This document shows positions 18,432 to 46,155 of a DNA stretch of 47,206 nt, piece by piece. Where the stretch lies: positions 1-47,206 of the forward strand of contig JAKJEE010000001.1 in NCBI GenBank assembly GCA_022705625.1, written 5' to 3'. This stretch comes from Patescibacteria group bacterium. GTDB taxonomy: Bacteria > Patescibacteriota > Minisyncoccia > UBA6257 > JAKLIH01. Numbering within the stretch: the stretch's first letter is position 1; each line of letters opens with the position of its first letter. Position numbers and translations under genes: made by a program. The notes under the pieces are model-generated. The model saw only the letters and a program-made list of their open reading frames with translations, had not been told where the DNA came from and made no database searches.

Positions 18432-19931
18432 ATGCCCAAAAAAATATTTGTTACTTGCGCTTTGCCATATATTAACGCTGACCCACACTTGGGCCATGTT
18501 TTTGAGTTTATTCAGGCTGATTGCTTCGTCAGATTTAACAAACTGATTGGTAATGAAGTTTATTTTACGGCTGGAACTGATGAAAATAGTTTAAAAAATA
18601 TTTTGGCTAGTCACGAGCACAAGGTAAGTGTTAAGGATTGAATTGATCAAAAAACAGCTTCGTTTTTAAAGCTGAAAGATGATTTTGAAATTTCGTTTGA
18701 TGATTTTATTCGCACCACTGAAGAACGCCACCATTTAGGCGCTCAAAAATTATGGTCGCACTTAGATAAAAATGATATTATTAAAAAAAATTATGAAGGA
18801 TTGTATTGTGTGGGTTGTGAAACATTTTATACCGAAGATGAGTTAGTTAATGGTTTGTGTCCAGAACATAAAAAGGTGCCGGAAAAAATTACCGAAGAAA
18901 ATTATTTCTTTGTCTTGAAAAATTATAAAAATTTTCTAATTAAGAAAATTGAAAGTGGCGAGTGAAATATTATGCCAGAAAGTCGAAAAAATGAAATACT
19001 AAGTTTTCTCAAAGGCGATTTATTGGACATTAGTGTAACCCGCAGTAAAAAGAGAAGTGAGGGTTTGGGAATTGAAATTCCCGAAGATAAAGAACAAGTA
19101 TTGTGGGTATGGATCGATGCTTTATCAAACTACATTAATGTTCTCAATTATGGCTTAAGCGACCAAACATTATTTGAGAAGTGATGAAACCATAGTGATG
19201 AAATATGACATTTCTTGGGTAAGGGAATTTTAAGGTTCCACGCAGCTTTTTGACCAGCATTTTTGCAATCAGCGAAAATTAGAATTCCAACTCATTTATT
19301 CTGTCATGGCTATATCACTGTTAATGGGGAAAAGATGTCAAAATCTTTAGGCAATAGTGCTGATCCTCGTGAATTATTAAAAAAATATCCACTGGATTCT
19401 ATTCGTTATTATTTGATGAAAGATATTCCGTCTGGAGACGATGGCGATTTCAGTGAGATAAACTTAATTAGTCGTCATAATAATGAACTTTGTGCCTCTT
19501 GAGGCAATTTAGTTTCTAGGGTGTTGGCATTGGGCGAACAATATCAACAGCCCATAAAATTAGTCGCCAACGAGTTAAAGCCAGAAATTGATGAATCAAT
19601 AGAAAATTATATTGAATGTTTTTCAAAGGTAAGAACCAACGACGTGGTTAGCGTGTGTTTCGATTTAATTGCCAAAATCAATAAATATGTTAGTGATCAA
19701 AAACCTTGGTCGTTAATTAATACTTCAAAAACCGATTTTGAAAGAATAATTTCAAGTTCGCTATATGGCATTATTTACGCTAATTTATTATTGTCCGCTA
19801 TAATGCCCAAGAGTAGCAAAAAAATATTTGATAGGTTGGATGTACAAATCGCGAGTTTAAAAGATATACCGTTGTTGGCAAACCAAGAATTCACTCTTAA
19901 AAAACCAGAGAATTTATTTAATCGTATTTAA
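18432..19931 (+). CDS. metG: Methionine--tRNA ligase
   Basis: HIGH-type ALPYINADPHLGH, CxxC zinc knuckle (YCVGCE...CPEH), YVW-like VWIDAL, F[W]PAFL, KMSKS. Four fragments are in one frame. Confidence 0.92.
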
Positions 19932-23969: not shown

Positions 23970-24130
23970 ATAACCCTTTGATATTTTTTAAAAAATAGTG
24001 TATACTACGATTAATTAAATTAACCAATATGTTCTATTTTTGATACTGTCATTTACTCTGCTATTATAGCAATTATTGACAAAAAATACAAAAAATATTT
24101 TTGCCAGTATTAGCATCAATTTTTCATTGA

Positions 24131-25246
24131 TTGGTCAATCATACTAAGTTTCTGTTTTTGCGTTTAAATTTAAAAGAGCATACCGAGCTTAATCCTAGTC
24201 GGCTAGCAATTTCAACTTTTATGATTAGTGCTTTGATGTTGTCGTTGATGTTATCCGGCATATCTAAAAACTTTTATTCAACTTTATGGGCTGACGCTGA
24301 CACCATTATAGAAAATGTGGAAATGAATAGCTCCAATTTAATTGCTGAGATACCCTCTATTAATAGTGTCAACCTTGATAGTTATAATTATTATCAAAAT
24401 TTAAATTTAGAAGCTAAATCAGAAAGCTTTTTAGATTTATATTTAATCGAAGATAAAAATTTCTTATTTAGATCGGTGGACATTGGTGATATTGGTGTGG
24501 ATATTACTGACTCCAGCAAAATAATTACGTATGTGGTCAAGCCGGGTGATTCATTAGCTAAAATTGCCAGCCAATTTGATATTAATGTGGAAACAGTTCG
24601 CACTGCCAATTCTTTAAAAAAGAATACTATTACTCCTGGACAAGAATTAATTATTTTACCAATTTCTGGCATCTACTATACTGTTAAAAAGGGCGATACT
24701 TTAAATGCCTTGGCTATAAAATATAAAATATCCGCTAGTACCATTAGAGAATATAATAATTTAGAAGAAGATACCTTAAGGATTGGTGAAAAAATTATTT
24801 TGCCTGGTGCCAAAGAAAAGGTGATAGTGACAAATCCTACTAACATTAATTCGGCAACAAAAATAACCGAAAACAGTGTTAGTGGTAGTGATTTCTTTTT
24901 ATACCCAACAGTGGGTTGAAACTGGGGAACGGCTCATGGTAATAATGGTAATGCTGTTGATATCGCTAACGCTTGTGGAACGCCAATTTATGCGGCCGCT
25001 GATGGAATAGCCATTGTGGTTAAAACTAGTGGCTACAATAGTGGTTATGGATCATATGTGAAAATACAACATAATAATGGCACTTCAACTCTATATGCTC
25101 ATTTAAGCGTAGTCAACATTGCTAATGGTCAATATATAAATCAGGGACAAATTATTGGTAAAATGGGAACAACTGGTCGATCAACTGGTTGCCACCTACA
25201 TTTCGAAGTGAATGGCGTTAAAAATCCATTTATAAAAAAACCATAA
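24131..25246 (+). CDS. Cell-wall metallo-endopeptidase: N-terminal TM, two LysM domains and a C-terminal M23 domain
   Basis: LysM: YVVKPGDSLAKIASQF and YTVKKGDTLNALAIKY. M23: GNAVDIA...GTPIYAAADG...GYGSYVKIQH.NG..TLYAHL...G.TG.STG.HLHFEV. The start (TTG 24131) is uncertain. Confidence 0.85.
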
Positions 25247-25255
25247 AGATTTAAT

Positions 25256-27865
25256 ATGATTAAAAAAATAGCCAAGAAAAGTTTATTAATATTATTATTA
25301 TTTATTATTACCTTGTATGGAGTTTTAACGCCCATTAAGAATGTTCATTTTGAAACCAATACTTGTTCGGCAGCATCAGGAGATGCGTTCCGACCAAAGA
25401 TAAAAACCAATGATGTAGAAGAACAAGCGGTTGATCAGGAATGGTGTCCAGATTGTACAGCAGCAGTACAAGGAATGACTATCTGACGTATGATGGTTGC
25501 GCCTATCGACACTTTACTTTCTTTAATACCAAGACTGCTGGTTTTTATATCAAAATGAATTGTAATTTTGTTTGCCAATATATTACAATCAGCTATGAAT
25601 CCGCGAGCTAATAGTTTTTTGGATGGTATAAATCGTTTTACTGGCGAGGGCAATGTGGCGAGATGAGTTTGACAAAATTCTTTATACTTTGCCAATATTA
25701 TGATTACTTTATTTTTAATTTGAATTGCTATCAACATCATTTTAGAAAAAGCAGAATATACATCTTATCAAAGTTTAATAAAGTTATTAACTGTGGCCTT
25801 ATTAATTAATTTCTCATTGGTAATTTGCACTTTGCTGGTTGATATATCAAATTATATTGCTTCTTTATTTATGTCTGGAGTCAATGGTCAAGCCTTTTCT
25901 TGCACCTATGCTTGTGCTATTCATAAAGTTGCCAATAGCTTCAATTGTGTTGCCGATAAAATGATGCTTTCTCAAACAATTCAAAATAGTTTAGCCTTGG
26001 TGGTAGCAATTATTTTTATTGGCCAGTTATTAGGTTTGATTATTTTTGTATTCACCCGTATGATTTACTTGTGATTTTTGGTTGGCGTATCGCCATTGGC
26101 TATCGTGCTATCAGCCATACCTGAAACCGAAGGTATCTATAAACAATGATTAAATTTGTTTAAAACCAATTTAATAAAATTACCGGCTATCGCTGCTGCC
26201 ACTTATTTTATTCTAAATATTATCTTGTTTATTACTAACCAATCGATGAATACACCAGTTGCCCAGGGCGACGTTATGGAACATGTGCTAACTACCACTT
26301 TTTTGATTATCATTCTGTCGCAAGGACTACTTATGGCTGCTCAAGCCATTGGTGTTGAACAGGTGACTAAGATGTCAGCAATGGTTAATGGCGCAGTCAA
26401 GAAAGGCTGAAATGCGATTAAAGCACCTGTTGCCCAACAATCAAAAAGATTCGCGGCTAATGTACCAATCGTTAGAAAAGGAACGGAAATGCTACAAAAT
26501 AGCAGTGTGCCGTGGATCGCAAAATCGGGAAACAAACTGGCTGCTCAAGTAGCTAAGGATCAGAAAAACGTAGCCACCAATATGGAAGATTTATTCGCCA
26601 ATGCCAATTGAAGATCTTTGGAACGATTAGCCGAAAGTAAAGACCCAACGGTGCGCGTTCAAGCAATGTCTTATTTATCTCAATTAGGATCAAAATATAA
26701 AGCCAAAAATAAATATACTGAAGATCCTGATAAAATTAACGCTATTAAAAAATTGGCTGACGATAATGTTAATATTGATAACTCTGCTGCTTACGATACC
26801 CTTAAAAAAACTTCGCCATTGTTTAAAACTGGCATAAAATCGCTAAGAGGTCAGAAAGGAATAGAAAATATTAATGACACCGTTGGAGAAATTAGTGCCG
26901 CCCTAAACGATGATAAGGGTGCCATGGATATTCAATCAACACTAGACACATTAATAAAAAATGCTGGTAGTAATCTGCCATATTTGATGAAAACTCTTCA
27001 GCGCGATCTTGACCCATATATTCTTAACGGTAAAGCCAAATCACTTGGCAACAAGGGTTATTTGAGCTTAATGGACACATTAGCTAAAGGTATTATTGTC
27101 GCTAAAAAAATAAAGAACAACGAAATCGCTCCGGCTGAAATTGATGATAATTTAAATGGTTTTATGCAGGGTTCGTCCACAGAGAATGCTGAAATGAGAA
27201 ACTATATTAAAAATCATCTTGTCGCTGATGCTGTGGAAATAGCCGAAAGTACAGAATATAATTTCTTTGGCAAGTGAGGAAGAAAAGGCCCGAGTTCATT
27301 TAAACGCACTGCTCAAGGACGTTTGTATATTAATATGGATAGCAATTCTTCTCCTATAAACATTAATAGAGCCAATACCAATAATAACGCTCCACAAAAT
27401 ACAACTACGGAACCAATTGATCGTGGGGAAGAACCTCCTTTGACTAATGATGGCGGTAGACCAACTGGGAGTAGAGACGCTGCTCCAGCCCCAGATAGTG
27501 GTAGGCCAGCTGAGAGTAAAGACACTGCTCCAACTCCAGATAGTGGTATGAGCGATGTAAAAGATGCTACACTATATCATTTTAACGAGTTGCGTAAAGA
27601 AATTAGAGAAGTCGCCTCAGATCTTCAAAAAGATTTACCGGAAATTAAAGATTTAATTCCAAAAATCAATGCGGCAATTAATTATGCGTCTGAAGATAAA
27701 AATAGAGAGTACATATCTTTAAGAGACAGGATAGACGAGCTTAAAACCAATTTAGAGTCAAACACTTCTTATACCTTCTCAACAAAAGATAAGTTAGAAT
27801 TGTTAATTGAAAAACTTGAACAAATGGAAAGATTGCGAGAAGAAAAAGATCATTCGTCAGAATAA
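25256..27865 (+). CDS. VirB6/TrbL-like polytopic membrane protein with a long hydrophilic C-terminal extension (869 aa)
   Basis: Five track fragments (25256, 25793, 26156, 26618, 27323) share one frame and are separated only by TGA. It has a signal/TM N-terminus, at least six hydrophobic helices between about 25480 and 26400, and heads a T4SS-like operon. Confidence 0.5.
27455..27544 (+). repeat. Two tandem 45-bp coding repeats (GRPTGSRDAAPAPDS / GRPAESKDTAPTPDS)
   Basis: Direct comparison of 27455..27499 with 27500..27544. The tract is locally GC-rich. Confidence 0.85.
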
Positions 27866-27940
27866 AAAGCCACTCCTGTTTTTTGGCTAGTCGATTATTG
27901 CGCATGATTAAAACTATATTGTTAATAAATAAAACAGCTT

Positions 27941-28918
27941 ATGTTGACCGAAATCTATATCGGCGATATCATTGACAAACTACCAGACCAGATACAGTCA
28001 ATTATTTTTAGTGATGAGTTAGAACAAATTGTTGACAATCTCTCTTCGATAATAGGCCTGGATGAAGATCAAAAAATGCTATTGTCTCAAAGTATTACTA
28101 CTTTACTAATGGGAAAATATGATTTTGTCACTTTTAAAAATGTGTTGTTAGGTTTTAATTTAAGTGAAACAAATATTAATCTCGCATTAGATTATTTAAA
28201 CAAAAAATTATTTGATAAAAATAAAAAATATATTAATGATGCGAGCTATATATACCGAGAAGAATTACAAAAACTACAAAATCCTAAGCAAGAGTTAGTG
28301 ACCAATTTTAGCAAAAATACGACTCCATCTGTGGTATCATATATAAAAGAATTGGCGGAAACTATAAAACAAAAAGAATCTCACCCAAAAAGCGAAACAG
28401 CATTAGAAGTCATAAACAACGATAATATAGCCGCCGCCGTTAAAACTCCGATTGAAAACACTCTTGCCAAAACCGCTGATCAAGTGGAGCCAACAAAATC
28501 TACTGTGTCTCTTGAACCAGTTAAAGTAGAAGAAGCTCCTAAATTAGAAACACCGGTGTTAGAAAAAAAAGATTCTATTTTGTTACAAGCCATGCGTCAA
28601 AATTCTAATAGTGAAGACAGTAAATTAAATAAATATTATAAAGAGTTGCGTGATAGTTTATCCGAAAAAACCAAAGAAACCAAAAATGTATTTCAACCAC
28701 CGTTCAAATCGGCGACTAATCATGGAGCGCTAATTGAGTCATTTTTGGATGATACTAAAGTAGAAAAAGCTACTTCGCCCGAAGCGAATAATTTGCCAGT
28801 AAATAGTGCCCCAATTAAATATAGTCATTGAATTCAACCAGAAAAAATAGCACAAACTACTGACACTGACGCTCAATCTTTAAACGAAGAAAAAATTATT
28901 GACTTAGGCGATTTGTAA
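27941..28918 (+). CDS. Hypothetical protein (325 aa), T4SS-module-associated; low-complexity C-terminal half
   Basis: ORF 27941..28831 continues through a TGA to the TAA at 28916. No motif was recognised. Confidence 0.5.
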
Positions 28919-28993
28919 AATAAAAATATTGCTAATTAACTGGTTTTATGTTAAATTATAATAAACATTAATAAAAACTAATTTAATAATGTT

Positions 28994-29401
28994 ATGGCTG
29001 ATTATCAAGTGCCACAATTTATCGAAGATGAATCAAGATTAATTGGTCCATTTACAATAGCACAAATTTCAATATTGGTGGTTGGATGTGGGTTGGCTTT
29101 TATTGTATTTAAATTGTTTAAATCTTTTATTGGCATTCCTTTGACGATTATTATTTTGTTTATTACTGGTATATTAACTTTTGGTCGAATGAACGATATG
29201 CCTCTGTATAAAATGATTGTCCCCATGATTAAGCATTTACTTTTACCAAAATCTTATCAATGAAGTCAACCCCACTTTGTAAAAAGCACCGGACAAACTA
29301 CCACCCAAAAGGTTACTAACAATATACAGCCAACTCAAGAAACTCACAATTTTAAAAAGATTGATGATTTAACTAAAATTTTAGATAAGGGCAATGAATA
29401 A
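28994..29401 (+). CDS. PrgI-family (VirB3-like) small membrane protein
   Basis: MADYQVPQFIEDESRLIGPFTIAQ...two TM helices...GRMNDMPLYKMI. This is the characteristic PrgI N-terminal signature, and the gene sits directly upstream of a VirB4-like ATPase. Confidence 0.75.
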
Positions 29402-30077
29402 ACAATCCCGTCCCATAAATAATAAAAGCACACAATATTTAGTGCCAATAAATGAAATTCGTAATAATGTTATCGTATTGAAAAATAGTGCTTTGCGATC
29501 AATTATTGAAGTTGATGGCGTGAATATGGATCTGTTAGAGAATGAAGCTCAAGAAAATTTACTTAGTAATTGACAATCTTTTTTAAATAATCTGGATTTT
29601 TCTGTTCAAATTTTGGTAACCTCCAGAAAAACTAATATTGAAGACTACTTAACTAATATTGAAAATCTTTTACCTAATACTGAAGAAGAAATGCTATTAG
29701 CTCAAGCCAATGATTATATTAATTTTGTGCGCGATTTTGTTAGCAATAATCAGATTATTGATAAAAAATATTACGTCGTGGTACCTTATGATCCAGTTGT
29801 TTTTAAGAAAAGTGCTTTGGGCGGACAAATAAAAGATTTATTGTTCGGTTTGTTTAATTTAAATCGTGAGGCCTTTTCGCAAGACATTATTTTAAGCGAG
29901 AATGAATTTCAGAAACATTATCAGCAACTAATTCTTCGTCAAGAAAACGTCATGGCCCAGTTGCAAAGAATTGGCTTAGATGCGAAATTAGTCACAACTA
30001 ACGAAATTATTCCGCTTATCCACAATATGTATAATCCGGACGTAGCAATAAAAACTGCTTTATCAAAAGATAATTAA
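29394..30077 (+). CDS. T4SS-associated protein (227 aa), possibly a detached VirB4 N-terminal-like domain
   Basis: Its start overlaps the prgI-like stop by 8 nt. The pattern VPINEIRNNVIVLKNSALRSIIEVDGVNMDLL.NEAQENLLSN[W]QSFLNNLDFSVQILV resembles the N-terminal region of VirB4/TrbE proteins. Confidence 0.4.
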
Positions 30078-30085
30078 AAAACACT

Positions 30086-31873
30086 ATGGCTATATTCTCA
30101 TCAAAAAATAAAAAAACCGAGGTTGATCAACTAATTGATCAGAGCCAATCAAGTTATGCTAAAGCCGTGGCTTCGTTACGTGATGTCATTTCGCCAGCAG
30201 GAATAGTTGTCAATACTACTTCCGTGAAATTAGGGGGAACTTATGCTCGCACGTTATTTATTTTAACTTACCCAAGATATTTGAGCCCAGGGTGATTTTC
30301 GTCAGTAATAAATTTTGAATCCGCTAATAATATTTCTATCTTTTATCATGCCATTGATAATTCATCAATTTTAAGACAGCTTCGAAAAAAGTTAGGCGAC
30401 GTTGGTGCTCAAATTCAATTAGAAGCCGAAAAGGGAGTGCCACGTAATCCAGCATTAGAGACAGCTATTGAAGATATTGAAAATTTACGCAATGCAATAG
30501 TGCAAGGCACCGAAAAAATGTTTCGCGTGGCAGTTTATATTACTTTAATTGGCAATAGTGAACAAGAATTAAACGACAATGAAAACAAAATTAACACCTT
30601 TTTAGAAAGTAAGTTGATTTATCCAAAATCAGCTCATTTTCGACATTTTGAAGGTTATGAAAGCACCATACCACTATGTTTAGACCGCTTGGGCTATGGA
30701 ACATTATTAAACTCTACGCCAGCTTCGACTCTTTTTCCATTTATTTCTGCAAGTTTAACTCAAAATTCTGGCATTATGTATGGAATTAATTTAATCAATA
30801 ATAGTTTAATAATTTTCGATCGCTTTAGTTTAGAAAATGCCAATATGTGCGTGTTTGGGACATCTGGTAGTGGAAAAAGTTATGCCGTAAAAACCCATGC
30901 CGTTAGAGAATTAATGATGGGCTCAGAAATTATCGTTATTGATCCAGAAAACGAATATGAATATTTAGCTAAAGCGGTGGGTGGTGAAAGCTATAAAATT
31001 GCGGTATCATCCAAAGACCATATTAATCCTTTTGATTTACCAATTATAACCACTGATGAAACTGTTGGTGAAGTATTTCGTGGTCATGTTTTAAATTTAA
31101 TTGGTTTAATTAAAATTTTATTGGGAGGACTAAGTCCAACTGAAGAGGTGGTTATTGACCAAGCTATTACTTTAACTTATGCCTCTCGAAATATTGATGT
31201 TGAATCCGATAATGCTATAGAAAATATGCCAATCCTGGAAGATTTGACTAACGTTTTAAATACTATGGAAGGTGGGGCTAATTTGGCGGCTAAATTATAC
31301 AAATATACCAAGGGAACTTATGGTCAGTTTTTAAATCACCCCACCAATATTAATATCAGAAATAAATTTGTTGTTTTTAATATTAATGAATTAGAAGAAG
31401 AATTACGACCAATTGCTATGTATATCTTGCTTAATTATGTTTGAAATAGTATTAAAAGAATTATGAAAAAAAGAATTTTAATTATCGAAGAGGCCTGACT
31501 ATTAATGAAATTTAAAGAAAGTGCCAACTTTATGCTAAGTTTTGCTAAAAGAGCTAGAAAATATTATTTAGGATTAACAACTATTACTCAAGATTTGGAT
31601 GATTTTTTGAAGTCACCTTATGGTTTACCAATTATTGCCAATTCGAGTATCAAACTCTTGTTCAAACAGTCCACTGTTTCCATTAATCAATTAGCCGAGG
31701 CATTACAATTAACTAGCGTTGAAAAAGAATTATTAACGCAAATAAATATTGGCTCAGGATTATTTTTAGCTGGCGATAAACATACTTTAGTACAAGTCGT
31801 GGCTTCTTACACTGAAGATCAATTAATCACCTCCGATCCAGCGAGATTAATGTCTTTAAAAAATAAATCTTAG
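30086..31873 (+). CDS. VirB4/TraC/PrgJ-family type IV secretion ATPase
   Basis: Walker A GTSGSGKS (30857..30880) and Walker B ILIIEEA[W] with W = TGA at 31496. N-terminal YARTLFILTYPRYLSPG[W]. Three fragments are in one frame. Confidence 0.85.
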
Positions 31874-31875
31874 CT

Positions 31876-32556
31876 ATGTCTGTAACATTAATTGCGGCCG
31901 GTGTTAAGGTGGCAGGTAAGACCTTGGTCAAAAAGCTCGGCACCAAGGTAGTTCAAAAGGGAGCCAAACAAGTGGCCAAAAAGGGCACACAAAAACTTGC
32001 CCAAGAAGGAGCAAAAAAATTAGGCACATCAGCCGTTAAAAAAAGTACATCACGAGGAGCTACTAATCAGTTTCAAAAAGCTAAAAATTTATACAATGAA
32101 GTAGAAAACACTACAAAAATCAAAGACAATGTGCCGGCCAAAGATGAGCCAGAAAAACAAACTGACACTACCACCGAAACCAGCCACCAAACATCAGACA
32201 CCCAGCCACCACAAAAAAAATCGGAAAGTAAATGACCGTTTTATATTGCAATGTTCTTTGCAGTTATTAAAGATGCTGTGGAAATATGACTTTCGCCGGT
32301 TGCCCCAGTTTTAACTTTCTTGCCCACGATAATTATTACCTCCATATTGCTTTTATCTGGCAAAAAAGGTACAATGAAAATAGTAATATCTTTGTTAACT
32401 ACGCTGGTTGATTTTTTAATGCCGGGTGTCAATATCTTACCAATGACAACTATCGCGGTGTTTATAACTATGAAACCAGATAAATCCAAAAAACTAAATA
32501 TTAATAACCAACAGGTCTCAAAGATTGTAAAAAGTGTAAAAAAATTTATAAAATAA
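31876..32556 (+). CDS. Hypothetical membrane protein: Lys-rich quasi-repetitive N-terminus plus C-terminal TM helices
   Basis: Fragments 31876..32235 and 32320..32556 are in the same frame, joined across two TGAs. The N-terminus carries KKLGTKVVQKGAKQVAKKGTQKLAQEGAKKLGT. Confidence 0.5.
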
Positions 32557-32560
32557 TTGC

Positions 32561-33562
32561 ATGATTAAAAATATATTAATAAAAATAGTATATATCATAA
32601 TCTTCCTGCTAATATTGATCCCGCCAATGAAAGTTTTGGCTAGTAATTACATTTGAGAAGTGAGCTTACCGGGTGTATCTTTGCAACGATTAAATAATTT
32701 GAATGGCTTTGGCGATTTAGTAAATATGATAGTGGGTTTGGCTTATAGAGCGGCCCTGCTGTTTATGTTGTATAAATTAATTGTGGTTGGTTTTAAATAT
32801 ATGACTAATCAGGGAAATGCCGATGTAGTAAAGGCAGCATCAGAAGGATTAAAAAATATTCTTTTCGGGGCTTTAATTTTATTTGGCTCCTATATAATTT
32901 TATATACTATTAACCCCAAACTAACAGAGTTTCCTCAACAATTATATTGTGACCCTAAAATAGCAGATTGCGAAAAGAAAAATACAGGTAAATCCAACAC
33001 GCATGTTTATACTACCTGTCCAAGTATAATTGAAGATCCTCGTGAAGATGAGACCCAAGCCGCGGATGGGGGAACAAAATCCGAAGATTCAACTGACGAT
33101 AACGGCATAAGTCCAACAACGATTGAAGATTTTATCGATGCTAATGACGCCTATTTAGCTCAACACGGTGATTGGACTAGTGCTCAACAGGATTTCCAAA
33201 CCGGCAAAGTTTCTAACAGTGTATGAGAAGCATTTAAATTAATTACCGATTTAAGAAAAAAATGATATTCAGATGGTTGTGGCAAATTGGTGTGAGGCCC
33301 AATCTTTACTAATCACGAAAAACCAGCTGGATCGACATATACTTCTTGTCATGACACTTACGAAGCGATTGATTTAGTGGTAAATGACGAATATGGAAAA
33401 ACGTCAATAAAGTGCACAACTGAATTTCTAAAATATATAAAAACTAGTGGGGTAGCAAGCGCTACGGGGGTAATAATATGTGATGAAACAAATTTTTCCG
33501 ATGTTACTCCTCACATTCATATCTCTGATACTAATTGTAACTCGGGATGTCGTGTTTCTTAA
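32561..33562 (+). CDS. T4SS pilin-like (VirB2/TrbC-like, CPR type) N-terminal domain fused to a Cys-containing C-terminal domain with LAS/M15-type zinc-peptidase motifs
   Basis: Signal peptide, then two TM helices flanking YMTNQGNADVVKAASEG. C-terminal motifs S-C-H-DTYEA-I-D (33344..33373) and H-I-H (33512..33520). Confidence 0.55.
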
Positions 33563-42499: not shown

Positions 42500-42542
42500 G
42501 GTTTATGATTACCCGCTTTATTTGGTTTTAAAATTCGTAGTG

Positions 42543-42614
42543 TGCCGAGAGAGTGAATCGGACACTCGACACTACGCTCTTCAGGCGTATGCTCTACCAC
42601 TGAGCTACCTCGGC
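42543..42614 (-). tRNA. tRNA-Phe (anticodon GAA)
   Basis: Acceptor GCCGAGG/TCTCGGC, D arm GCTC-AGTGGTA-GAGC, anticodon arm TACGC-CTGAAGA-GCGTA, T arm GAGTG-TCCGATT-CACTC (atypical T loop). Confidence 0.8.
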
Positions 42615-42716
42615 ACAATTAATTATTAAATTATTAAAGCGGCATTTTTATTAAATACCAAATTGTCATTTGGTATAGGTATTATAGCAAGTTTTTTACA
42701 TTTTGTAAACAGATTG

Positions 42717-42788
42717 TGTCCCCAGGAGGAGTCGAACCTCCATCTAAAGCTTAGGACGCCCTTGTTCTATCCATTGAACTATGGGAAC
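42717..42788 (-). tRNA. tRNA-Arg (anticodon CCU)
   Basis: Acceptor GTTCCCA/TGGGGAC, D arm GTTC-AATGGATA-GAAC, anticodon loop GTCCTAA, T arm GGAGG-TTCGACT-CCTCC. Confidence 0.75.
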
Positions 42789-42796
42789 AATTAGAG

Positions 42797-42882
42797 CGGA
42801 AGGGGTGAGATTTGAACTCACGAAGGTTATTCGCCTTACAGCTTTTCGAGAGCTGCGCTTTCAACCACTCAGCCACCCTTCC
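42797..42882 (-). tRNA. tRNA-Ser (anticodon CGA), class II
   Basis: Acceptor GGAAGGG/CCCTTCC with discriminator G, anticodon arm CAGCT-CTCGAAA-AGCTG, long variable arm, T arm GTGAG-TTCAAAT-CTCAC. Confidence 0.85.
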
Positions 42883-42896
42883 AGTGTTTAAAAAAT

Positions 42897-42930
42897 AGTG
42901 AAAACCTTGTAAAGTTTTTGTTGGTTTTCA
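42897..42930 (-). terminator. Hairpin terminator between the repeat-bounded element and tRNA-Ser
   Basis: GTGAAAACC (42897..42905) / GGTTTTCAC (42922..42930). A T-run follows on the minus strand. Confidence 0.55.
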
Positions 42931-42959
42931 CGTGAATTCTAAGGTTACATTTAACAGAT

Positions 42960-43245
42960 TTAATGATAGGAGTTGAACCCCCACACTAACTTTCATTGAG
43001 CTTCAAGAGATTTCTTGGTTCTTTTTTTAAGGCCATTTAAAGCTTGAGCTCGAAGTTTGAGATTGTGTTCCCGACGATGGGCTTCATCTCTTGAGGCGTA
43101 AGCTTCGTAATACACTATTTTGGAGTGAGCTTTTGGCTTGGTGGCATACACTTTCTTTTGGTTGTGACATTTTAACCTATTTATTAAATTATTTTAATAT
43201 TGATATGGGTATTATGTATATATACTCAAAAGTATAGAGCATCAT
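42960..43245 (-). pseudogene. Degenerate small GIY-YIG (UPF0213/COG2827-like) nuclease gene
   Basis: One frame gives NNLINRLKCHNQKKVYATKPKAHSKIVYYEAYASRDEAHRREHNLKLRAQALNGLKKRTKKSLEAQ with no start codon and a TAA directly upstream. The N-terminal remnant MMLYTFEYIYII is in another frame. Confidence 0.5.
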
Positions 43246-43304
43246 ACCCACTATATTGGTTAGGCGAATAATTTAATAAATAGAAATGAAAGTTAGTGTG
43301 GGGG
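42978..43304. mobile_element. 327-bp element bounded by perfect 20-bp terminal inverted repeats, carrying a decayed GIY-YIG nuclease gene
   Basis: CCCCCACACTAACTTTCATT (42978..42997) is the exact reverse complement of 43285..43304. Its right end abuts the 3' end of tRNA-Ala. Confidence 0.6.
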
Positions 43305-43377
43305 TGGACCTGATGGGACTCGAACCCACGACCTCCTGCATGCCATGCAGGCGCTCTACCAGCTAAGCTACAGGCCC
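43305..43377 (-). tRNA. tRNA-Ala (anticodon GGC)
   Basis: Acceptor GGGCCTG/CAGGTCC includes the G3:U70 alanine identity pair. Anticodon arm CCTGC-ATGGCAT-GCAGG, T arm GTGGG-TTCGAGT-CCCAT. Confidence 0.88.
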
Positions 43378-43734
43378 ATGGTGGTTATTATACATTATTT
43401 GTTTTAATAATTCAAGCCAAGGAGTATATATAGAAGATCAAACACGTTTTGGGCTTTTATTATAAAAATCTTTTTAAATTATTTTAATTGGCACTACTAG
43501 TGAAGTCATTTTTTAAAATGTCAATTTAAATGTATTATATTAAATAGAGGAAAGTTATCAATGTTAGTAATTTAATAAATATAATATTAGTAAAAGGCCA
43601 TAAATAAAACATGATCGTAAAGACCTTGACATTTTTTTATTTATTGTTACAATTTTTATAATTAATAATAAATCAAACAATTTTTTTGAAAATTTGTTTT
43701 AAAAATGTTCTTAAAAATTGCATAAATTTAAATT

Positions 43735-45630
43735 ATGAAAAAATCTATACCATTGATGTTAGTGGCTTTATTGGTGGTGGGAATATTAACTCAAGGCACT
43801 AAGGTTTTTAATTTGCCTAATTTTTTTGATAAGGTATCAACAAAATTATTTTCCTCTAAAAAAACATTGTTGGCCGATGTAGATTCGTCGCCAGACAAAA
43901 CAATTTCCCCCGTTGATTTAATTACTAGTGATATGGAAACTTGTGCGGTTGATAGTGATTGTCAACTTATCAATATAACCAACGAACCAATGGGTTGTTG
44001 CTATTGTTTAAGTAATATGGACTCAGAATGAATATGACGAGCAGTGAATGGGCAATCTCGATCGAAAATCGAAGAGATTAAAAATGAATATTGTGCTACT
44101 GAAACACGATGTCCGGTGAGTGTTGACTGTAATAAAAACCCAGTTTTACCAATCGACAGGATAGCTAAATGTGATGGTGGAAAGTGTATTGTAGCTAAAC
44201 CAGAAGTTAGCAAAAATTTAACACCAACGGATGAAGATTCGGAAGTTTCAACAGACACCAACAATGTTAATTCGATGTCGGCTACGGAAACAACATTAAA
44301 AGAATATTATTATTGTTCTTTGCCAACATATCAATGCGTAGCCAAATCTATTATAAACAATACGGGTGGCTATCTTTCACAAAAAGACTGTGAGAAAGAT
44401 TGTTCTCAAACTTTAGTTAAAAGCATTGAACTATCAGCTGATATGCTAAAATGTTCGTATAATTCCGATTGTAAAATTGTTGATACCGGTTGTTGCCCTT
44501 GTGCTTGAGGATACACTGAAAAAACTAAAACAGCTATCAATCGTAACTCAGAAAAAACTTTTTTGGCTAAATGAAAAAATGATTGTAATGGAGCAGCTTG
44601 TGTGCAATCGTCTATTAATAATTGTCGTCTTAAGGTTGAGGCCAAATGTCTAAATAAAACATGCACAGCGGTTTGAGAAAAACCAATAAAGCCAGCCGTG
44701 ACTTCAACAATGAATAAATGTATGAAAGATTCAGATTGTGCAATAGCAGAAACTGATTGCTGTGGTTGTGAAAAGGGAGGAGTTGATAATACAAAAGTGG
44801 GTATTAATAAAAGTTATTTAAATAATTTTAAAAATAATATAGCGACATATTGTAAAAAAATGAGTTTAGATTCTTGCGTTTGAAATTATAATCGATGTCG
44901 ATTTGATGCTACCGTAGCATGTAAGAATAAAGTTTGCGTTGTTAATCTAACGAGTCAGGGTTCATCCGGTGAATTACCGGTTACGCCACCTATTTCTTCG
45001 ACGACGACGACTATTACCACTACGACTACTACGACGACCACTACGACTACTACTAAAGCTAGTGCGCCAGTTATAACTGAAGAACAAAGAAAATGCACCA
45101 GTGATGCTCAATGTAGTTATGTTGAAACTGATTGTTGTGGTTGTAAATATGGTAACGATTTTCTAACACAAATGCCAATTAATTCTAAACACAAGTACAC
45201 TTTTACTAATACGCTTACTAAATATTGTCAAGCCAATAAATTATTACCTTGTAAATCAGTTGGTGTCAATAATTGTTTTACTCCCAAAGTAAAATGTATG
45301 AGTGGTTTATGCACTAATATATGAGTGGCTCCGGTCGCCTCGACAAGTGTTACCTATAAAAAATGTACTGCTGATACCGATTGCGTTGTTATTGAAACCG
45401 CATGTTGTGGTTGTGAAAATGGTGGTAATATAGCTACAAAGATTGGTATTCATAAAAACTATTTAACTTCGGTGTTTAATACCTTTAAGACAAATTTAAG
45501 TAAATATTGTCATGCGGTCAATCAAGATAATTGTAGTTCAACTGATAATAAATGCGAGGGTGAACCAAAAGCAGTGTGCGTTAAAGAAGGATCAATTAAA
45601 GTTTGCAAAGTGAAGGCGGCCAATGAGTAA
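43735..45630 (+). CDS. Secreted cysteine-rich repeat protein (631 aa): signal peptide, five ~80-aa Cys-rich modules, poly-Thr linker
   Basis: Fragments 43735, 44044, 44698 and 45325 share one frame, and the gaps contain only TGA. The repeated core is C-x3-D-x-C-x5-6-[TE]-x-CC-[GP]-C. The Ser/Thr tract is at 44995..45054. Confidence 0.75.
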
Positions 45631-45679: not shown

Positions 45680-45707
45680 TTGACAATCAAGGTATATGTG
45701 CTATACT
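45680..45707 (+). promoter_or_regulatory. Near-consensus sigma-70-type promoter for the RRM protein gene
   Basis: TTGACA (45680..45685), 16-nt spacer, TATACT (45702..45707). This leaves a 5' UTR of about 100 nt containing the hairpin CTTACAT...ATGTAAG. Confidence 0.55.
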
Positions 45708-45816
45708 ATTAATGTTCTCTTATGAGTCCTTTTCCTTACATAGATAAAATGATGTAAGCAAGAAAGAATGAGTAGGGATAGGTCGCTTAATTATTTTATC
45801 TAGACAATAATATACC

Positions 45817-46155
45817 ATGGCAAAAAAATTATATGTTGGAAATTTGTCTTATAGTGTGACTGACGAATCACTAAAAGAATATTTTTCTCAAGCTGGTGTA
45901 GTTGAAAGTGCAACTGTTCTTATGGACAGAATGACAGGCCGATCCAAAGGATTTGGTTTTGTCGAAATGTCAACTGATGAAGAAGCACAAAAAGCTATAG
46001 AAATGTTTAATGGCAAGGAATTGGATGCAAGACCATTAACCGTTAATGAAGCTCGCCCCAAAGAAGAGGGTGCTGGCCGATTTAATCGAGGTGGTGGTTT
46101 TGGCAACAATCGTCCAAACCGAGGAGGTTTTGGCGGTCAACGAAACAACTGATAA
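45817..46155 (+). CDS. RRM-type RNA-binding protein with a Gly/Arg-rich tail
   Basis: RNP2 LYVGNL and RNP1 KGFGFVEM. C-terminal RGG-like tail. Ends ...NN-TGA(W)-TAA. Confidence 0.88.

Follow-up and report, generated by a model that had tools for sequence, protein, structure and literature searches.

The stretch of DNA analysed here (the window: 47,206 nt, contig JAKJEE010000001.1 of assembly GCA_022705625.1, from a Patescibacteria group bacterium) carries on its forward strand, at 43735..45630, a gene for a cysteine-rich protein of 631 residues, which is the subject of this report. The gene adjoins a cluster of tRNA genes, as an earlier note made from the letters of this DNA had stated, and its features are collected in Table 1. 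The product is exported and built like beads on a string, with five 10-Cys alpha/beta domains (modules) of about 80 residues, one 4-Cys mini-domain and a Thr-rich linker. The module defines a rare, widely scattered family of extracytoplasmic domains that was previously unannotated.

Table 1. Features of the gene, its product and the window (i-E, independent E-value of the match to the module hidden Markov model, HMM; identities are to the same module of the orthologue; handles as in the text)
Feature	Residues (aa)	Window position (nt)	Strand	Remarks
Promoter-like site		43626..43653	+	TTGACA, 16-nt spacer, TG-extended TACAAT; 11/12 matches, best + strand site upstream of the open reading frame
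Complete coding sequence	631 + TAA	43735..45630	+	translated with TGA=Trp (code 4)
Span of seven in-frame TGA (Trp) codons		44029..45324	+	TGAs at 44029, 44035, 44506, 44572, 44674, 44881, 45322
Signal peptide MKKSIPLMLVALLVVGILTQG	1-21	43735..43797	+	basic N-terminus, 12-residue hydrophobic core, T-Q-G at -3/-1; conserved in orthologue
Cys-free conserved N-terminal region	22-66	43798..43932	+	conserved in orthologue, similar in P0001 and P0007
Module 1, divergent 10-Cys	69-157	43939..44205	+	i-E 1.8e-22
Acidic/Thr linker	158-189
4-Cys mini-domain	190-226	44302..44412	+	Y-x-C-x6-C-x17-C-x3-C
Module 2, 10 Cys	240-316	44452..44682	+	i-E 9e-24; 57% identity
Module 3, canonical 10-Cys	328-407	44716..44955	+	ETDCCGCEKGG...GINK; i-E 4e-27; 56% identity
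Pro/Ser/Thr linker with poly-Thr run	408-452	44956..45090	+	tract kept in orthologue
Module 4, 10 Cys	453-532	45091..45330	+	i-E 2e-25; 68% identity
Module 5, 10 Cys	543-631 (HMM match 543-629)	45361..45627	+	i-E 4e-22; module used for modelling
tRNA cluster Phe, Arg, Ser, Ala		42542..43378	-	adjoins the gene
MetRS		18432..19931
DnaA		35510..36913

The gene and its genetic code

The gene is a single open reading frame (ORF) of 631 codons and a TAA, and its frame (frame 1) holds neither TAA nor TAG until 45628; at the composition of the window, a run of 631 codons free of both would arise by chance with a probability of ~7e-16. The seven in-frame TGA codons lie exactly where the earlier note had placed them, and its proposal that TGA read as Trp fuses the fragments into one secreted protein of 631 residues agrees both with the codon statistics and with an orthologue of 55% identity. 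The codon statistics were drawn from the 28 long ORFs of the window (10,880 codons). TGA (105 codons) and TGG (24 codons) together make up 1.19%, a normal Trp content, with TGG alone at 0.22%, and all 28 ORFs stop at a codon other than TGA (24 TAA and 4 TAG). TGA stands in frame in almost all housekeeping genes of the window, for example those of aminoacyl-tRNA synthetases, DnaA, PNPase and Pth, and it is found at the 'LW' and 'TWF' positions in the N-terminal part of DnaA and at the 'F-W-P-A' position of MetRS, which we take to be classic conserved Trp sites of both families. It follows from the normal content of TGA plus TGG, the conserved Trp sites and the restriction of stops to TAA and TAG that TGA is neither a Gly codon (code 25) nor a stop, and that it encodes Trp throughout the host genome. 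Code 25 had been considered on account of the RRM gene downstream and a gene content like that of the Candidate Phyla Radiation (CPR; Gracilibacteria), and was excluded since Trp would fall to 0.22% and by the conserved Trp positions. A tRNA-Trp is not among the seven tRNAs of the window, none of which is tRNA-Trp(UCA).

The host is a bacterium of the Paceibacterota/Minisyncoccia (CPR, Patescibacteria) with TGA as Trp, and a DnaN at least 90% identical to that of the window carries the label 'Candidatus Paceibacterota bacterium' (from a metagenome-assembled genome, MAG). The organism is seen repeatedly in wastewater, anaerobic-digester, activated-sludge, groundwater, soil and manure metagenomes. 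A 2026 preprint describes the first UGA-to-Trp reassignments in the Patescibacteriota, class Minisyncoccia, and names two recoded lineages, the family JAKLIH01 and the genus GCA-2747955; its organisms resemble our host in recoding and phylum, a likeness that concerns the host and not the protein (10.64898/2026.05.24.727570). In another 2026 paper this recoding is otherwise listed for four phyla only (PMC13462651).

Across contigs of four independent studies the gene hardly varies, with 0-4 differences over 2.1 kb and no insertion or deletion within the ORF, and the only two single-nucleotide polymorphisms seen inside it are both synonymous. The length of the ACG/ACT tract behind the poly-Thr run, for which the earlier note had suggested a check for polymorphism, is constant among these contigs. 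In one run an extra T stands at 43631, inside the promoter-like site. Three contigs of ~200 nt from RNA libraries (depth 2-3) show 100% identity to the ORF, two of them running over TGAs (44881 and 45322); all three are weak evidence of transcription, with carry-over of DNA possible.

The orthologue and the age of the array

The sole homologue of the full-length protein in a word-indexed search was P0001 (814 aa), on the 7,999-bp Logan contig L001. Just upstream of P0001, at L001:505..2379 and within a cluster of secreted-protein genes, lies the orthologue of 624 residues, which is 55% identical to the window protein end to end and retains 54 of the 54 Cys as well as the poly-Thr tract. It has TGA codons at residues 99, 101, 304, 373 and 520, which fall on positions that are Trp in the window protein as well, and five of the seven TGA positions of the window protein are Trp in it. 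The outcome that the earlier note had set against its own reading, termination at the TGAs, was not seen, the frame running on across them in the orthologue too.

A module HMM trained without the orthologue finds five modules in it at nearly matching positions (i-E 1e-17 to 6e-21). It also recovers all five in the window protein, so the five repeat modules recognised earlier from the DNA are real repeats. Modules at the same position in the two proteins share 56-69% identity, off-diagonal pairs 25-51%, and the modules within the window protein 32-46%. That same-position modules are the most alike means that the array of five modules is old; it predates the split from the lineage of the orthologue, and each position in it has been individually maintained and kept distinct. 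The region is one intact gene that is selected as a unit.

A row of small ORFs or a pseudogene with the TGAs as stops is effectively refuted: the standard code does split the frame, and public protein collections carry the gene only as standard-code fragments of this kind (P0002 and P0003), but TGA is in frame in nearly all housekeeping genes of the window and at conserved Trp positions, the modules run through the TGAs in register, the orthologue keeps the entire frame with all its Cys, and code 4 is reported for the lineage (10.64898/2026.05.24.727570).

P0001 itself, at L001 2542..4986, is a tandem paralogue that immediately follows the orthologue on its downstream side. It is made up of a degenerate module 1, the mini-domain, three canonical modules and then a differing C-terminal part; this part contains another conserved Cys-rich segment (VCGDG.C...E.YLYE.D....C) and a C-terminal helical tail, both of which are common to P0010 and P0016. 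In all four samples (runs X1, X3, X4 and X5) a second contig matches only the ETDCCGC core of the window gene (45121..45153, 3 mismatches), and its flanks encode KCTTDANCRI..., that is, a P0001-like paralogue. This contig always co-occurs with the window organism, of whose genome it may be a part that lies beyond the window.

Anatomy of the protein

The signal peptide has no lipobox Cys, and its cleavage was placed by reading the sequence, with no predictor tool; a C-terminal anchor is absent from the protein as well. Its 54 Cys fall into exactly ten per module, where the earlier note had given about 9 to 10, and four in the mini-domain, with none elsewhere. The Cys content is 8.6%, while the remaining 36 ORFs of the window have 0.80%.

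Module 1 is divergent, with an insert of five residues ahead of CC and a longer C-terminal loop; it is 69% identical to module 1 of the orthologue and 25-43% identical to the other modules of orthologue and paralogue. The Ser/Thr run SSTTTTITTTTTTTTTTTTT (residues 421-440) lies at nt 44995..45054, as the earlier note had it, and is written in mixed ACG, ACT and ACC codons, not as a pure repeat.

The extra four-Cys segment noticed earlier between modules 1 and 2 is present and can be described more closely, since it is an independent, reusable mini-domain. Its motif, Y-x-C-x4-6-C-x8-20-(S/T)-x2-4-C-x3-C, has ten further instances in other proteins, namely P0001, P0004, P0005 (two), P0007, P0008, P0014, P0024 (two) and P0026. 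One more stands at the start of an unrelated secreted protein of 1,044+ aa adjoining P0010 in L008, which comes from another TGA=Trp organism (28% G+C). The AlphaFold2 model of the mini-domain is a beta-hairpin followed by a helix that bears the CxxxC (predicted local distance difference test, pLDDT, 77), and no Pfam family matches it.

A family of exported modules

A profile built from TGA-free pieces of the modules was searched exhaustively with HMMER against 1.84 billion cluster representatives, in line with the HMM and the wide protein scan that had been proposed at the outset. At E<=1e-3 it found 83 proteins, 8 of which reach E<=1e-10; P0080 and P0085 looked, on inspection by eye, like false positives caused by repeats and were set aside, which leaves 81 genuine members with 95 module matches, 93 of these near full length. 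Most members are proteins of 100-160 residues, usually with a single module: it is present once in 69, twice in 11 and four times in P0001. By heuristic reading, no dedicated predictor having been used, nearly all full-length members have a signal peptide, lipobox or transmembrane (TM) anchor at the N-terminus, and in ~85% of the family no domain other than the module follows the membrane anchor or signal peptide. Standard-code gene calling shreds TGA-recoded proteins, and for TGA-recoded organisms public databases therefore understate family size and copy number.

The family consensus reads C-x2-D-x-DC-x2-V-x3-CCGC-x2-GG-x3-AINK, then a helix, then C...C...C...C...C. The spacing of the ten Cys is C-x5-C-x7-8-CC-x-C-x~25-30-C-x5-8-C-x5-6-C-x5-12-C-x4-8-C, with which all five window modules are in register, and all ten Cys are present in 72 of the 93 instances. 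Positions other than Cys are conserved at 63-94% across the family (D 80%, D 83%, GG 94%/88%, A-I-N-K 63-74%). The motif D-x-DC...(V/I)...CCxC-x2-GG...A-I-(N/H)-K is full in modules 3-5 of the window protein and partial in modules 1 and 2, which have no GG.

The members are scattered over varied bacteria and at least one archaeon. One from a Woesearchaeota archaeon MAG consists of a TM anchor and one module, while one from a Paceibacterota MAG has a signal peptide, PG_binding_1, an acidic linker and the module; a broad word-indexed search added a member or subfamily labelled 'hypothetical protein [Elusimicrobiaceae bacterium]'. A scan of genome contigs with a tightened module alignment gave two loci, and scans of metagenome contigs (two scans) and of viral contigs gave none. 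The Woesearchaeota gene (L002 5881..6216, single-module and TM-anchored) lies between two very large ORFs of 1,091 and 1,163 aa, which by their N-terminal sequence may be RNA polymerase subunits B and A'.

We agree with the earlier note that the module cannot be assigned to a named domain, no characterised family matching it. Pfam and NCBIfam gave zero families at E<=10 for the window protein and its modules, nor does any model of theirs lie over the module in 80 relatives. Both libraries include named Cys-rich repeat models (Myxococcus-type, EGF, LDL-A, TNFR and similar), and none for Myxococcus-type, EGF, LDL-A or TNFR-like repeats matches the window protein at E<=10. PHROGs and PADLOC gave no match for the module, and a profile of 60 family sequences found zero matches among the PDB sequences at E<=10.

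Fold and disulfides

The AlphaFold prediction that the earlier note had called for was made on module 5 with the 60-sequence family alignment. AlphaFold2 returned a confident alpha/beta model (mean pLDDT 92.0, predicted TM score 0.76) with strands at 11-15 and 30-34, a long helix at 35-55 and a C-terminal hairpin at 73-88. Judged by this model the fold would provisionally be a new one, unmatched so far.

The Cys of the module disappear in pairs. Exactly Cys3 and Cys6 are missing in 14 of the 93 instances and exactly Cys5 and Cys8 in 2 of the 93; counted as a pair, Cys3 and Cys6 occur together in 75 instances and are jointly missing from 14, with 4 discordant cases that are mostly alignment slips (Fisher p=6.6e-13). 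The pairwise loss, the even number of Cys in every module, the extracytoplasmic site and the confident alpha/beta model together point to five disulfides per module, and the co-loss suggests Cys3-Cys6 and Cys5-Cys8 as two of the pairs. As between the two arrays that the earlier note had left side by side, disulfide-rich or metal-binding, the paired loss favours the disulfide-rich one and speaks against the metal array.

Possible functions

We propose that the window protein serves in extracellular binding or attachment, being multivalent and stabilised by disulfides, a reading that we regard as evenly poised between right and wrong. Five disulfides would turn each module into a rigid, protease-resistant knot. 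Since the module is usually the sole domain behind an anchor or a signal peptide, it would itself have to carry the activity, and this arrangement together with the conserved non-Cys residues makes the binding of something extracellular, such as a ligand, the most plausible one. The window protein would then be an extracellular or surface-associated attachment protein with five differentiated binding units, in which the Thr-rich stretch would serve as a flexible, possibly O-glycosylated spacer. Fusions of the module offer some binding context, one being to PG_binding_1 and one to a region of collagen-like repeats with matches to models of collagen-like adhesins. A multivalent binding protein would also fit the episymbiotic lifestyle proposed for CPR bacteria, which are thought to live attached to other cells.

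Several points weigh against this proposal. No characterised homologue backs any function, and no cell-wall or membrane anchor can be recognised once the signal peptide has been cleaved. Extracellular disulfides in a CPR bacterium of anaerobic habitats need an oxidase of the DsbA or VKOR type, and none is seen in the window. Covariation backs two of the five proposed disulfide pairs, and the RNA support comes down to the three short, low-depth contigs with their possible DNA carry-over. A conserved gene neighbourhood that would indicate a partner is also missing, no recurrent neighbour gene being found around the family members at L001, L002, L003, L008, L012, L013 and L014.

The modules could instead be inert, rigid spacers in a stalk, a surface layer or a matrix, a purely structural component of the envelope with no specific ligand. 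The beads-on-a-string layout with its Thr-rich linker and the lack of conserved partner genes are in line with this, as is the extreme Cys content, which suggests rigidity as argued for Peribacteria proteins (PMC4736985). Spacers, however, would have nothing to separate in most members of the family, where one module follows an anchor; positions other than Cys are strongly conserved family-wide, and the differences among the five module positions are older than the split from the orthologue and have been retained. This conservation and the long-kept positions argue for specific interactions, and we consider a purely structural role improbable.

Somewhat less probable still is a multi-headed protease inhibitor or shield in which each module would block an extracellular protease, like multi-Kazal domains, either to shield the cell surface in protease-rich sludge or to disarm a host. 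A tandem of small, rigid disulfide domains is a build typical of inhibitors, and among the few members with partners recognisable by Pfam two carry inhibitor domains: P0022 is module, chagasin I42 (E 2.7e-24) and module, and P0077 combines I42, Kazal and the module. I42 is rare, so that two co-occurrences in 80 proteins are unlikely by chance. Yet the fusion is found in only these 2 of 80 proteins, which are perhaps related to each other, and an anchoring or presenting of the inhibitor by the module would explain it just as well. Neither in sequence nor in fold does the module resemble any inhibitor family of Pfam or PDB, and the HMMs of Kazal, chagasin I42 and other inhibitors miss it, matching separate regions of P0022 and P0077.

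A metal-binding or redox array, in which CC-x-C and other Cys would bind metal ions or clusters, or would serve in the extracellular transfer of electrons or thiols, is very unlikely. The very high Cys density, the CC-x-C motif and the Cys2-Cys2 spacing of the mini-domain on a beta-beta-alpha topology, which resembles zinc-ribbon or zinc-finger-like sites, would suit it. But the Cys vanish in pairs, and the 8-Cys variants keep the rest of the domain, which is how disulfides behave and not sites with three or four metal ligands. Cys in sets of 3-4 and little secondary structure, the marks of a metallothionein-like array, are not what we find, the loss being paired (p=6.6e-13) and the model, with no metal in it, confidently showing secondary structure of an ordinary kind. 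In addition, the family members are almost all exported, and neither the window protein nor its relatives match a metallothionein, ferredoxin or other metal-site family in Pfam or NCBIfam.

A wider form of the attachment reading would be that the module is both a new fold and a new extracytoplasmic binding domain common to ultra-small bacterial and archaeal episymbionts (CPR Patescibacteria and DPANN Woesearchaeota) and to scattered other phyla, and that the five-module protein is a host-attachment factor in which each module recognises a different ligand on the host surface. In this full form the idea is speculative and, in our judgement, unlikely.

Relation to known proteins

The protein is of a known kind, that of secreted cysteine-rich repeat proteins, and what is new is the domain family. 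To our knowledge, very few CPR surface proteins have any assigned domain. Large extracellular Cys-rich proteins are known from the CPR Peribacteria, where they were proposed to serve rigidity or attachment to other cells (Anantharaman et al. 2016, PMC4736985), and we found no other precedent in the literature for Cys-rich secreted CPR proteins. They share with the window protein the CPR host, the signal peptide and the lack of functional annotation, at ~7% Cys (PMC4736985) against 8.6% here, whereas the window module is a different domain, a 10-Cys alpha/beta one without any Pfam or NCBIfam match.

Secreted cysteine-rich repeat proteins of the SCREP type and multi-domain Kazal inhibitors (PMC6262176; PF00050/PF07648) also combine a signal peptide with tandem small disulfide-rich domains, each folding independently, and linkers. 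They have no relation in sequence or fold to the window module, although Kazal and chagasin domains are fused to two members of the family. SCREPs are knottin repeats of animal venoms with three disulfides (PMC6262176), in contrast to a domain of 10 Cys and ~80 residues with a long helix, found in bacteria and archaea.

The linker has parallels as well. Mucin-like Ser/Thr-rich linkers occur in bacterial surface adhesins between folded extracellular domains. The likeness lies in the low-complexity stretch of poly-Thr, Ser and Pro between folded domains, and Thr-rich tails follow the module in P0009 and P0011; unlike the adhesin linkers, the tract in the window protein is short (20 residues) and constant in length among strains, and its glycosylation is putative.

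Overall, our analysis defines a compact, confidently modelled and apparently new disulfide-rich domain outside the public family libraries. Its family is rare but wide, reaching from CPR bacteria to an archaeal MAG, and the window gene encodes the largest module array known, in a lineage whose genetic code has newly been recognised. The domain is small enough for expression and structure solution and is a candidate for Pfam, and the module is a concrete candidate for studies of attachment or protease protection in wastewater and digester consortia.

Flanks and neighbouring genes

The promoter that the earlier note had given the gene is present as a match and is the best one in the region. The AT-rich region, however, holds 17 promoter-like sites where shuffled sequence gives 13 +/- 4, which is not above chance, and the site is for that reason to be read only as a consensus match. 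No intrinsic terminator was found downstream of the gene.

Within the tRNA cluster, between tRNA-Ser and tRNA-Ala, ACCCCCACACTAACTTTCATT and its complement form a perfect inverted repeat of 21 nt (42977..42997 and 43285..43305), with arms 287 nt apart, the right arm reaching a few bases into the 3' end of tRNA-Ala. A match to the Rfam family HPnc0260 at 43180..43340 is below threshold (47.8 bits, gathering score 59) and probably due to chance.

Downstream of the gene, at 45680..46155, lies a gene for an RNA-binding protein of 112 residues with an RRM_1 domain (Pfam E 1.9e-23) and a Gly/Arg-rich tail. It has a promoter-like site of its own, TTGACA-16-TATACT (TG-extended), and a leader of ~110 nt without significant structure (z = -0.13).

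Further upstream, at 24029..33562, there is a block of envelope and secretion genes that looks like a type IV secretion or conjugation-like apparatus. It includes an M23 peptidase with LysM domains (24029..25246), a polytopic membrane protein of 869 residues with no Pfam match (25256..27865), a P-loop ATPase of the VirB4/TraG type (30086..31873) and a signal-bearing protein of 333 residues with 9 Cys (32561..33562).

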